NCBI GenBank assembly: GCA_964016885.1
Contig: OZ024759.1
Span: 31,186,001-31,250,000, forward strand
Reading direction: 5' to 3'
Origin: Eledone cirrhosa
Taxonomy: Eukaryota
DNA: 64,000 nucleotides
Shown: positions 1,091 to 62,834 of the stretch, piece after piece
Layout: the number at the start of each line of letters is the position of its first letter
Position numbering within the stretch: the stretch's first letter is position 1
The notes under the pieces: model-generated
Database searches by the model: none
What the model was told of the DNA's origin: nothing
Seen by the model: only the letters and a program-made list of their open reading frames with translations
Made by a program: the position numbers and the translations under genes

Positions 1091-1300
1091 AAGTAGTTCC
1101 ACAACAGTTAGTTCACCATACCGAGAACAAATGTTTCACCTTATTCAGATCCTCAGCTCGGTCTAAAGCGAGCTGAGGATCTGAATAGGGTGAAACATTT
1201 GTTCTCGGTATGGTGAACTAACTGTTGTGGAACTACTTCTACCAAACTCGTCCCATGGACTCTACTACTACTACAGATATAACCCACTAGTGTTCTACTA
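1091..1300 (+). mobile_element. Hammerhead-bearing hairpin insert in (TA)n (Penelope-like pLTR-type)
   Basis: 70-bp inverted arms 1091-1160/1169-1238 (1 mismatch), unique tail 1239-1300, (TA)n on both sides; each arm contains CTGAGGA...GAAA. Confidence 0.75.
1120..1162 (-). ncRNA. Type-I hammerhead ribozyme motif (mirror copy on + at 1169-1207)
   Basis: Minus strand ACCGAG-CTGAGGA-TCTGAATAAGGT-GAAA-CATTTG-TT-CTCGGT: 6-bp stem I and intact core, but weak stem II. Confidence 0.65.
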
Positions 1301-1427
1301 TTATATATATATATATATAATTATTTAACATATATTCAATGTTTTAAAGGTTTTAAGAATTGCCACAATTATATTACATGTAAGAGAGTATGCCACAAAT
1401 GTCATTATATTTTATTATAATATATTA

Positions 1428-1593
1428 TTAGGGTCGGACGCCATGCTTTCCAGCATAGTTACGTCCCTTTACGATCTGAGTTCAAATCTCGCCGAGGTTG
1501 ACTTTGCCTTTCATCCTTACGGGGTCGATAAAATAAAGTACCAGTAATGCACTGGGTAATTGCTGGCCTTGTGCCTAAAGTAGAAACAATTAT
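1428..1593 (+). mobile_element. tRNA-head SINE (family A, Nin/Deu-like core)
   Basis: B-box GAGTTCAAATC, core TTTGCCTTTCATCCTTACGGGGTCGATAAAATAAAGTACCAG, ATT tail. More than 20 copies, e.g. 2465-2642, 6195-6537, 6580-6768(-), 20838-21017(-), 34697-35152(-), 37725-37828, 46620-46835, 47535-47705, 55508-55650(-), 59708-59905(-). Confidence 0.9.
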
Positions 1594-1809
1594 AATATAT
1601 TATTGAAAGCAGTTTATAAATTTTAAATTTGAATCTAATTTCAAAGTGAATAGACTGGAATGTTTTTTCTCTGAGAGTTCCTTTACTTTGATTAAGAGAA
1701 TTTTAAGTCTCGAAATAAAAATTACCAGGTAACCAACTTTTCTGTTGCCTTCATCTTTCCATCCATTTTGCATTGTTTTAACCTTCTTATATATTATATC
1801 ACTTTCCAC

Positions 1810-2155
1810 ACTATATATTATACATTATATTATATTATATTATATTATATATTATATATTATATTTTATATTATATTATATTATACTATATTATATTACA
1901 TATTATATTATATTATATTATATTATATATTATATATTATATTATATTATATTATATATTATATTTTATATTACATTATATTATACTATATTATATTACA
2001 TATTATATTATATTATATTATATATTATATATTATATTATATTATATTATATATTATCTATTATATTTTATATTATATTATATTATACTATATTATATTA
2101 CATATTATATTATATTATATTATATATTATATTATATTATATTATATTATATTAT
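1810..2155. repeat. (TATTA)n microsatellite
   Basis: Pentamer array read directly. Confidence 0.95.
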
Positions 2156-2440
2156 ACTCTTACTCTTTTACCTCTTCCAGCCATCCGGCTAAGGCCATGC
2201 TGGGGCACCACTCTCAATGCTACACATTCTATCTCCAGCCTCTGTTGGCTGGCCATTGGTATAAGAAGAAGTTCATTGCTGCTGCTGCTGCCCTTAGGTT
2301 ACCTTTGTACCATGCTGTAGGCTCATCTGGGATCCTGGATAGCAGGGTGTCAAGATGTTTCTTGAAAACATCCACATCCACACCATACTCTCAAATCTCT
2401 TGGCAGCTTGTTGAAGAGTTGAGGGCCTTTGAAACCCAGA
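2156..2440 (-). mobile_element. CR1/L2-group LINE 3' end
   Basis: Minus strand translates GFKGPQLFNKLPRDLR / GVDVDVFKKHLDTLLSRIPDEPT (frameshifted), typical ORF2 C-terminus, then a short UTR and AAGAGT tail. Confidence 0.75.
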
Positions 2441-2639
2441 CTATTACATTATATTATATTATAGTGGATTGACAGTATCGGTAGTGTCGGACATGCTTTC
2501 CAACATAGTTATTTCCCTTTACGATCTGAGTTCAAATCCCGCCGAGGTTAACTTTGCCTTTCATCCTTACGGGGTCGATAAAATAAAGTACCAGTAATGT
2601 ACTGGGTAATTTCTGGCCTTGTGCCAAAAGTAGAAACAA

Positions 2640-59208: not shown

Positions 59209-59429
59209 GCCTTTAGCATTTACATTACTCTATATATACTATTATATTTTCACAGTAAAGGCTTTATCTTACATAATTACTTCACATAGTATCGAATCTA
59301 TGAGATTTTGATATTATTTATTTTGACAACAATACCTTAACATCAGTATGAGTGGCCAGTTACGACCGGTTTGAACAGAAAGAGGTTACAGAATTCTTGC
59401 TGGATATGGCCAATTTAAATGCTAAAGGG
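59209..59429 (+). mobile_element. piggyBac-type MITE (another at 60685-60902, -)
   Basis: TTAA-flanked family sequence. Confidence 0.9.
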
Positions 59430-60306
59430 TTAAATACAAAAGCCTTGAATTCCTAAATCTCGATTTCAATGCGAAAATGAATGAATGAATGAATAAATAA
59501 ATATATATATATATATATACACGTATATATATATATATATATATATATATATATATAAAAGGAATTGATCAAGAAGTTCCTAGACCTAATTTGATTACCA
59601 AGTGAGGTGGAACTCTCCAATTCGGACCAAGGAAACAATGTTTCCATTGGTCTTTCCGTTGCTGATACTCTCAACCAGTTGCAACTCCTGACAGAACTAA
59701 ATAAATATAATGGTTTCTGATTTAAGCACAAGGCCAACAATTTTAGGGGGAAGTGAAAGTTGATTGAATCGACCCCAGTGCACTACTGGTACTTTATTTT
59801 ATCGATCCCATAAGGATGAAAAGTAAAGCTAACCTCGGCGGGATTTGAACTCAAAACATAAAAATACAAAACTCTATGATGCAAAGGATGTTGTCCAAGA
59901 GTCTACCTCCCTAAATAGACATAAAATAAAATAAAATAAAATAAAATAAAATAAAATAACGTCCTTTGTTCACATTTCAAAGGCAGTTAATGTTTCTGAA
60001 GTGTAAAAAGAAAACCTAATCTCATTATTGATATTAGCTTTCATGTATACGTATGTTGTTTATAGCATGAAGCAATTAACAAGCTGCTCATGCTAAGCTA
60101 GTTGAGCTGAGTTCCTTTTCAGGAAATATTAAGGAAATTCGACGGCAACAAGATAGAATCAATAGAATGTTTTTTTTCTTGTTTGCCAATTAGAGACGGA
60201 ATTCAGTTTTGTAACATCCTTAGCATCCTTCATTACTTCTGTTAGTACAGCATCCTGTAAACCTTACTTCTTGATATATATATATATACACACACACACA
60301 CACATA

Positions 60307-60660
60307 TATCATCATCATCATCATCATTTTACATCCGCTTTTCCCTCTTGTAAGGGTGAGACGGGTCCTATTCAGCACAGCATCTCTCTACTCATGACGG
60401 TCCTTCGTCGTCACCTCTGTGAGCTTCAGCAATCTGGGGTCTGTTCTCACCACCTCAGCACACGTTTTGGGGGGTCTTCCTTCTACTATATACTAGAGGA
60501 AGACCACGAAAAACATGGGCGGAGGTGGTTAGAGCAGACCTCAGATCATTCAAGCTCAGAGGAGAGGATGGAGGGCCGTGACAAGTGGAGAGATGCTGTG
60601 CTGAATAGGACCCATCCCACCCTTGCAAACTGAAAAGCGGACGTAAAATGATGGTGATGA
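60307..60660. mobile_element. Two RTE 3' ends head-to-head
   Basis: Minus copy 60307-60485 and plus copy 60493-60660, both truncated at the GRPRKTW-coding segment. Confidence 0.85.
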
Positions 60661-61141
60661 TATATCCTGAAAGAATCATGTTAAACCTTTAGCATTCAAA
60701 CCGGTCGTATCCAAACAGAATTCTGTCACCTTTTTATGTCCAAACCAGCCATAACCAGCTGCTCATATTGATGTGAAGGTATTGTTCTCAAAATAAATAA
60801 CATCAAAATCTCATAGATTCGATATTACGTGGGATAGTTGTGTAAGATAAAGCCTTTACCACAAATAATACAATAGTATAGAGTAATGTAAATGGTAAAG
60901 GCTTAAGCCAGGCAGAGCTTATCTCTCTCCAGATCTGAATACAACCAATTTCTTCCAGAGAGAGAGAGACACCCAGTATTGACTTGCTACTTTATTTATC
61001 AATCTTTTATCAATCTCAAGACAATGAAAGATAAAGTTGACCTCGGTTTAATTCAAACTCAGTGCACACTGGATTAGAACAAATAACCCAAGGTATATTT
61101 TATAGAACACACTTAACGTCTCAGCTAGATTTCCACCTTAA

Positions 61142-61583
61142 CCTTTTAGTCTTTAAACCGGCTGTATCCGGCCAAAATTCTCTCACCTCTTTCTGTTCAA
61201 ACTGGCAATAACCAGCTAATCATACTTATGTTAAGGTATTGTTCTCAAAATAAATAATATCAAAATCTCATAGATTCGATGTTATGTGAGATAATTATGT
61301 AAGAAAAAACCCTTACCTTGAAATTACAATAGTAAATATAGAGAAATATAAATGCTAAAGGGTTAAACATTTAGCATTCACATTATTCTATATTTACTGT
61401 TGTAATTTTGTGTTAGAGGCTTTATCTTACATAATATCTCACATAATATCGAATCTATGAGATTTTGATATTTATTTTGAGAACAATACCTTAATATAAG
61501 TATGAGTAGCTTGTTACAGCTGGTTTGAACAGAAAATGGTGAAAGAATTCTGGCCGGATATGACTGGTTTAAATGCTAAAGGG
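61142..61583. mobile_element. Two inverted piggyBac-type MITEs sharing one TTAA
   Basis: 61142-61362(-), TTAA 61363-61366, 61367-61583(+). Confidence 0.9.
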
Positions 61584-62217
61584 TTAAGATGTGGATGTGA
61601 CTCTTGAAAATGATACAAATATTAAACCACTCCATCCTTATGAAACCCTGAATAAATTTTTTATTTTATTTTATTTTTATGTCTCCTAACAAAAAGAAAA
61701 TTGGCGTCGAAGTCAATTAGATTTTGTTGATTCAGTATTTTGATTTGCGAGAAGGGGTAGCGAAGTATATCTTAAAACGGAATTGAATAGATTAATATAG
61801 CTCAGTAATGTATTAATCACGCTATTTTCTGTTAAATATTAATCATAGACGAAATGAATTCTGCTTGCGTGTACAAAACTGTCAGAACTTATATATTTAT
61901 TATTTAAACCCATCACTTAATAAGTCAACTGTTCTAATTAGAGAAATACTAATGATATTAGTAAGGTCATACAGGAAAAATATTCAAACCAATTTGATGA
62001 TAAACTTTCCAACTGAAGGTATTGATTTTTTTTTATTTTATCACATAAATCACGCAGCAACCTTTCACTTATCGATATCACATTAACATATATATACATA
62101 TACATATATATATACACACACATATAAATAAATATATATATACACATATAAATAAATAAATATATATATATACACATAAATAAATAAATATATATATATA
62201 TATATATATATATTATA

Positions 62218-62834
62218 TGTTATACTTGGGGAGGGTCATATTTGTGTAATAATATTGCCAGAATTAATAACAGAACACACTCACTGTTTGGTTGGTTTTC
62301 GCTTCTGTGTCTTTTATATCAGTTAATTTAATTTATTCGGTCCTCAATGTTACCATTGACTGACCAACGGTCAAAAATACAGATACAATATAGACACAAA
62401 CACATATATATAGTCTAACAAACTTCTTTCGTTGCACATCTGCAACATCGCAGAGAAGACAAAAATAAATAAATAAATAAATAAATAAACAGACTAAATA
62501 AAGATGGCGTAGGCATACAATACAACAGGAGGAAACATAATAGCACCACTGACGATGTTGCAGATGTGCAACGAAAGAACTTTGTTAGACTATATATATG
62601 TATTTGTGTCTATATTGTATCTGTATTTTTGACCGTTGATCAGTCAATGGTAACATTGAGGACCAAATAAATTAAATTAACTGATATAAAAGACACAGAA
62701 GCGAAAACCAACCAAACAGTGAGTGTGTTCTGTTATTAATTCTGGCAATATTGTTACACAAATATGACCCTCCCCAAGTATAACAATATTTGTTTCGACA
62801 CACGATTTCATATCAAAAACCTCGCAAAACTAAT
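62218..62834 (+). mobile_element. Large head-to-head HHR insert in (TA)n
   Basis: ~233-bp arms 62218-62450/62553-62785, tail 62786-62834; single-arm paralog at ~41460-41562. Confidence 0.85.
62541..62588 (+). ncRNA. Type-I hammerhead motif
   Basis: CTGACGA-T-GTTGCA-GATG-TGCAAC-GAAA-GAAC-TT-TGTTAG; strong stem II, imperfect stem I. Confidence 0.65.

Follow-up and report, generated by a model that had tools for sequence, protein, structure and literature searches.

Known PLE Hammerheads and the Eledone Window

Penelope-like elements (PLEs), including an octopus family of the Hydra clade, are described as carrying hammerhead ribozymes with a palindromic stem III and U3:A8 core variants, as targeting TA repeats, and as leaving inverted copies (PMC8557442; PMC4209133; PMC11167929); both the role of the hammerhead and the origin of the inverted repeats are presented as open questions (Craig et al., 2021; PMC8557442). 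For Octopus vulgaris, 31 recently active Penelope-like families have been reported, in a paper whose main text makes no mention of ribozymes (PMC13282606). Here, we describe short hammerhead-bearing inserts in a 64-kb stretch of Eledone cirrhosa DNA (contig OZ024759.1, positions 31,186,001–31,250,000; genome size 3.0 Gb), hereafter the window, in which (TA)n and other repeats are abundant. The inserts are very probably 5′-truncated pseudo-long terminal repeat (pLTR) ends of coding PLEs rather than a new non-coding class: their motifs are real, lie well above chance, and are accounted for by PLE biology already known. The families, their density, the asymmetry of their ends, the scarcity of starts at the cleavage site, and the range of ribozyme states are new here; the kind of element is not.

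Minimal PLE hammerheads (Cervera and De la Pena, 2014; PMC4209133) resemble those of the window in the extra base after A9, the palindromic stem III, the many families per genome (mostly as single truncated copies), and the opposite-strand pairs 100–700 bp apart; a U3-A8 variant is described there from Schistosoma mansoni. Metazoan non-long-terminal-repeat retrozymes likewise have type-I hammerheads and a proposed PLE ancestry, but as described they are head-to-tail tandem repeats (PMC7229834; bioRxiv 10.64898/2026.07.22.740005), whereas the Eledone inserts are solo or inverted stubs with coding parents, and head-to-tail tandem arrays of hammerhead units are absent from the window.

Insert Families and Their Coding Parents

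The window holds the following principal inserts, for which links to PLE reverse transcriptase (RT) and endonuclease (EN) were sought elsewhere in the genome; clade labels are the motif-based assignments explained below.

1088–1299: family A (Hydra-type), tail-out inverted pair, arms 1088–1167 (−) and 1170–1299 (+)
1120–1162 (−) and 1169–1207 (+): family A hammerheads; RT and EN upstream in locus L059
5085–5252 (−): family B (Hydra-type) 3′ end, truncated at the −118 hotspot; canonical hammerhead 5130–5185
18480–18697 (+): family C (Neptune-type) 3′ end; canonical minimal hammerhead 18574–18609
36405–36792: family H (Hydra-type), inverted pair, arms 36405–36514 (−) and 36546–36792 (+)
45330–46069: family F45 (Hydra-type), inverted pair, arms 45330–45885 (−) and 45883–46069
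46143–46354 (−): family J (Neptune-type) 3′ end; hammerhead 46279–46316 with a U3:A8 core
49627–49838: family G (Hydra-type) hairpin, truncated in loop II, with ends at +20 and +100
62218–62834: family K (Neptune/Nematis-type), inverted pair, arms 62218–62450 (−) and 62463–62834 (+)

Genome searches were seeded with these eight families, and the best 40 candidates of each search (143–3825 at first look; 2102 for family A) were scored. In their longer copies, all eight (A, B, C, F45, G, H, J, and K) have a PLE GIY-YIG EN upstream on the sense strand, and RT was also found for A, F45, H, J, K, and C. For F45, 11 of 19 other loci have sense-strand EN motifs some 1 kb upstream and four have inverted ones, with RT in L182–L184; in family H, EN motifs lie at about −1.0 to −1.3 kb in 4 of 19 loci. 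One family H locus (L195) has a 761-codon open frame between two pLTR copies, with the “tail” continuing directly into the frame, a partial tandem of the form pLTR-tail-open reading frame (ORF)-pLTR. Upstream EN motifs were found in 3 of 24 loci for family A, 10 of 24 for K (RT in L188; Pfam RVT_1, E 1.8e-6), and 2 of 24 for J (RT in L186/L187; Pfam GIY-YIG, E 5.8e-7). When an EN end was the query, 13 of 15 loci had family B following the Hydra-type EN on the same strand; for family G, 5 of 24 loci have a sense-strand EN and four an inverted one. Family C had no EN in its first 20 loci; an upstream query then gave EN motifs in 11 of 25 loci and RT in L361. That G or C might have no coding parent was ruled out by the EN linkage of both and the RT of C.

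A sequence-only reading of the window had proposed a population of non-coding mini-elements of several unrelated families, with no PLE ORF in the window. The last point holds, as 0 bp were matched by tblastn with three PLE proteins. The separate non-coding population is contradicted by the upstream EN of all eight families, the linked RT plus GIY-YIG that was suggested as a check being complete for six of them; nor are all the families unrelated, since five fall in one clade. These five (A, B, F45, G, and H) have a CxCX5C linker, CxxC before E, CxH after N, and no CCHH, the first C of the linker being changed in the L195 copy of H and intact in L125, L126, and L140. The RT region recovered for two of them has DKT + RWR (H) or DKT + SWR (F45); it was not recovered for A, B, or G. 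Families J, C, and K have a CX4CxxC linker (CX2-5CxxC type), which does not tell Neptune from Nematis. By these motifs, the five would belong to the Hydra clade, and J, C, and K would be of Neptune/Nematis type. The family H protein has no match in Pfam, which the Hydra EN likewise escapes; GIY-YIG/RVT_1 occurs on part of its Atlas neighbors.

Hydra-clade PLEs as described by Craig et al. (2021; PMC8557442), among them Hydra-1_Obim of Octopus bimaculoides, are like the Eledone families in their C-terminal EN, CxCX5C linker, DKT and RW[KR] motifs, 3′-end hammerhead, often with U.U beside the core (here A and H), (TA)n target, and inverted 5′-truncated copy tailed on one side. The hammerheads listed there are all C3:G8 with a short stem II, unlike G (U3:A8, stem II of ~55 nt, 5-bp stem III) and F45 (stem II of ~100 nt). 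Tails are 30–40 bp there vs. ~50–125 nt here, and one octopus family is listed vs. at least five here, in none of which the Obim motif of that list is present. Neptune/Nematis PLEs share with J, C, and K the CX2-5CxxC linker before a C-terminal GIY-YIG and the minimal hammerhead, a likeness judged from the linker; K differs in having a motif without stem I.

Hammerhead Motifs of the Window

Motifs were sought with strict, relaxed, and loosest versions of a type-I hammerhead descriptor that allows an extra base after A9 (a first descriptor without this base was discarded because the 18574 motif escaped it), and chance was gauged from 40 locally shuffled versions of the window. The strict version gave two matches (5130–5185 and 18574–18609) vs. 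0 in each shuffle, and the relaxed versions added 45507–45644, 25765–25894, 46279–46316, and 1120–1162/1169–1207. The loosest gave four matches vs. a shuffle mean of 0.95 (maximum 4), so that the 1120/1169 pair is not significant by itself and draws its support from membership of family A.

The sequence-only reading had listed six main type-I sites with mostly palindromic stem III loops. Five have the topology: 5130–5185 (−; stem III TATATA), 18574–18609 (+; CG), 45507–45644 (−; CGATCG, with a stem II of ~100 nt), 46279–46316 (−; CCGG, with core UUGAAAA, that is, U3:A8), and 1120–1162 (−)/1169–1207 (+), where stem II has just 2 bp after a U.U pair and the loop, CATTTG, is an imperfect palindrome. 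The sixth, 62541–62588 in family K, keeps the core, stem II, and GAAA, but its stem I is nearly gone (~2 bp) and the topology fails. In minimum-free-energy folds most minimal motifs were no better than shuffles, and folding energy is used as support for F45 alone (z −4.5). An Rfam scan of the window at E ≤ 10 had no hammerhead family among the 150 of 262 matches listed, which were of low-complexity and hairpin microRNA type.

Density in the Genome

One hundred stretches of 10 kb (1 Mb), taken at round-number positions on large contigs, contain 66 strict motifs (bootstrap 46–88 per Mb) vs. 0–3 in five shuffles; these fall into 18 sequence clusters, and 39 have a perfect palindromic stem III, in agreement with the proposal of a diverse and dense population of PLE-type minimal hammerheads. 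Its association with (TA)n is also borne out: (TA)5 lies within 200 nt downstream of 57 of the 66, vs. 19% of 19,800 grid positions. Hydra-like coding sequence spans 23.7 kb of the same megabase. The commonest cluster (17 of the 66), which is not in the window, has an A/U-rich stem I, a TATATA/TATGTA stem III, and ends at about +40 and +130 (loci L201–L240 and L281–L340); in some others, stem III is a near-palindrome of 7 nt (CCACTGG, for example).

With 3 strict motifs per 64 kb against 66 per Mb sampled, the window is ordinary in hammerhead density for this genome. Scaled to 3.0 Gb, the total is estimated at ~200,000 motifs (140,000–260,000), a figure that counts both arms of pairs and from which long-stem forms (G and F45) escape. 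Schistosoma may equal this genome in hammerheads per Mb. Published counts, which rest on descriptors different from that behind our ~200,000, are ~4,000 and 9,000, called remarkable (PMC4209133), and, in a section heading, ~5,000 for mussel and up to 120,000 for axolotl (PMC7229834). A literature search of papers available without subscription found no genome-wide hammerhead count for any cephalopod.

Insertion Ends and Proposed Mechanism

Ends were analyzed in the window and in 308 loci, left from 340 after removal of 32 that overlapped or were duplicates, giving 560 matches, of which 118 are position-picked. The 3′ ends of each family fall at two or three fixed positions, counted from the cleavage site: +20/+100 in G, +38/+100 in A, +80/+140 in J, +66/+190 in F45, +37/+74/+110 in H, and +207/+255 in K. 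Tail-out inverted pairs join different ends, short and long, in 118 of 127 cases; within the window, the minus arm of family A ends at +38 and the plus arm at +100, and the minus arm of the F45 pair is the long end (+190), with the hammerhead, and the inverted arm the short one (+66).

Many window inserts are long inverted repeats, and TA-flanked, near-perfect examples might be read as derivatives of DNA transposons, like miniature inverted-repeat transposable elements, or as products of fold-back repair, with the ribozyme motifs as passengers. This is scarcely credible for arms that end at different fixed positions and meet at variable inner junctions, and the continuation of the arms into RT/EN genes largely refutes it.

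Just 2 of the 560 matches, and none of the 118 position-picked ones, begin no more than 2 nt from the cleavage site, in an analysis that matches below ~35 nt would escape; such scarcity suggests that the copied RNA templates were likely uncut by the predicted ribozyme. For the preference for (TA)n, the endonuclease of the parent is the best account, in line with what is published on Hydra PLEs. We hold with high confidence that the inserts are 5′-truncated 3′ ends (pLTRs) of coding PLEs, which the GIY-YIG EN and RT of their parents likely copied into (TA)n from RNA that was likely uncut. The enzyme would nick both strands of a TA tract, and two complementary DNAs (cDNAs) would be primed, each at its own internal start site on the RNA: one at the short end, the other at the long end with its “tail,” which would be the beginning of the next tandem unit. 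In most cases both cDNAs would end prematurely, and their 5′-truncated ends would be joined, leaving a tail-out hairpin; alternatively, one cDNA would join the target through TA microhomology, leaving a solo stub. This scheme follows in vitro results for Poseidon PAc of Anolis (Frangieh et al., 2024; PMC11167929), in which two internal RT start sites define the tail, both strands are extended, and the RNA substrate is uncut; the exception is strand bias, as the PAc start site shows no strand difference in vitro, whereas paired arms here nearly always use different ends.

Sharp 5′ hotspots occur in family B, at −118/−119 in four of five full-length-type matches of the sampled megabase, and in family G, where 15 of 24 sampled matches begin between −29 and −50. 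They could mean that short masters copy themselves, and they favor the view that some short forms (the 170-bp B stub and the G hairpin) are now non-autonomous, being transcribed and copied by PLE enzymes in the manner of dispersed retrozymes. We consider this improbable: six family B haplotypes are common to short and long copies (which also speaks against a separate mini-element population), the junction letters of G vary among copies, the breakpoint in B lies in an ATAT microhomologous to the target, the window has no tandem arrays of these units, and the G stub is missing the catalytic core.

Besides these hotspots, several observations weigh against origin as stubs of coding PLEs made from uncut RNA. 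RT was traced for neither B nor G, for which EN alone was found, and the minor motifs at 18381, 23300, and 23534 have no traced parent. The hairpin pattern was not seen in B (0 of 3 pairs with different ends) or C (0 pairs). Very short cleavage products, from the site to the short end (20–40 nt), would escape BLAST; the majority of loci behind the 560 matches were chosen by similarity to window copies; and for A, J, F45, H, and B the position of the long end is also where the reference stretch used stops. Finally, the start site of PAc in vitro has no strand difference (PMC11167929), in contrast to the asymmetry here.

Core Conservation and the Role of the Ribozyme

The core is specific: in the sampled megabase CUGANGA gives 64 matches, six single-change cores 0–1 each, and UUGANAA 2, and N7 varies freely (T38, C14, A9, G5). 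In family A, N7 differs in 17 of 45 matches and other core positions in 0–3 (a few loci overlap). Stem I letters vary among the 18 clusters, which had been selected for pairing. A type-I core with its stems is present in B, C, F45, A (with a weak stem II), G, and J (both U3:A8), and fails in H and K. Decay of the UUGAAAA core at 46279 was ruled out, since U3 and A8 are each fixed in 60 of 60 family J matches. The U3:A8 core also occurs in 31 of 31 full G motifs, which fold as a three-way junction with a 5-bp stem I, a long stem II, a 5-bp stem III, and a GUC site; in G stem II there are three double changes in six rows, at most suggestive of covariation, all being in one subfamily and a score as high being reached by 32 of 500 shuffles. 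The G hairpin of the window retains GAAA, the 5-bp stem III, the GUC site, and the 3′ strand of stem I. A search of sequencing runs with family G matched four runs of one study, none listed as RNA.

Family H, with poor stems I and III, has A at position 4 (U4A) in 59 of 59 matches; its CAGAAGA core is family-wide, so that the copy at 36650, taken in the sequence-only reading for a decayed one, is typical of its family. H and K are young families (97–99% identity) that spread despite broken hammerheads, and H (U4A) and K (no stem I) weigh against ribozyme function being needed for spread. The hammerhead fold might then be kept in PLE stubs for protein binding or for positioning RT, seldom cleaving in the cell, as would fit the spread of H and K, the lack of truncation at the cleavage site, and published ribozyme mutants that insert normally in vitro (PMC11167929). 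Such a role is unlikely, if far from negligible, given that all catalytic core positions are held across the 18 clusters while N7 varies, that a compensatory U3:A8 is fixed in both G (Hydra) and J (Neptune-type), and that UH is retained. For PLE stubs with a catalytic hammerhead, the ribozyme would likely act at another step, namely the processing of tandem transcripts, as a palindromic-stem-III dimer or, in G, as a monomer, and in some families the hammerhead would be dispensable for spread.

Taken together, it is conceivable, though rather doubtful as a whole, that no genome counted so far is as rich in hammerheads as this one, that a two-ended PLE insertion is preserved in its inverted stubs, with the two cDNAs forced onto different start sites of an uncut RNA, that G is a monomer cleaver with a U3:A8 pair that arose independently in two clades, and that loss of the ribozyme is tolerated in H and K. 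The genome offers a natural comparison set of many short, young insertions with canonical, U3:A8, long-stem, and broken ribozymes, in which genome-wide counts of insertion ends can be set against rates of cleavage. Many short hairpin repeats of such genomes that are labeled “unknown” or like short interspersed nuclear elements (SINEs) are likely PLE stubs.

Further Copies and Other Features

Additional copies and minor motifs in the window are as follows.

4703–4777, 37163–37224, and 50298–50387: family G fragments
18201–18293: older relative of family C, covering the 18216 site
18337–18470 (−): decayed long-stem-II motif (GAAA CACGTG UC); 3 related matches in other loci
19364–19402, 23904–23980, and 41461–41562: family K fragments
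23276–23376: hairpin insert with core and GAAA, stem I missing; 22 matches in other loci
23490–23640 (−): decayed long-stem-II motif (GAAA CAATTG UA, AATAAA); 1 related match
25528–25744: second family G hairpin
25751–25955 (+): second F45 copy, core mutated to CTGAAAA

Ten sites had been listed as decayed or truncated hammerheads. Those at 18216 (C relative), 25765 and 45882 (F45), 41462 (K), and 36650 (H) are copies of traced families, and 18381 and 23534 are, read by eye, decayed long-stem-II motifs; but 23300 has no stem I, 23717 is GAAA-palindrome-UH alone, and 51700 is unconvincing as a hammerhead. All five family G sites of the window, a family abundant in the genome, had been overlooked.

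At 19042–19744, a 322-bp, 98% inverted duplication of host-like flank surrounds a palindromic K-type end (19364–19422) and may be an insertion-associated inverted duplication; another K fragment lies beside it at 19745–19830. In L197, L246, and L248, G hairpins stand directly upstream of 5′-truncated B-family coding sequence, which suggests either nested insertion or a switch of template from one family to the other. At 37302–37488 and 45186–45289 there is another TA-flanked family of hairpins, with no hammerhead seen in these copies. Dispersed repeats, SINE-like or other, form close inverted pairs at 6421–6695, 60331–60644, and 61134–61591; these possibly arose by the two-ended mechanism as well, or by chance where density is high. 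The broken frame at 22408–22836, which we take to resemble mitochondrial ND1, is probably a nuclear mitochondrial copy, and 52044–53498 encodes an RT of the long interspersed nuclear element type with a PHD finger, in a 484-aa open stretch (Pfam RVT_1, E 1e-28; PHD, E 7e-7).

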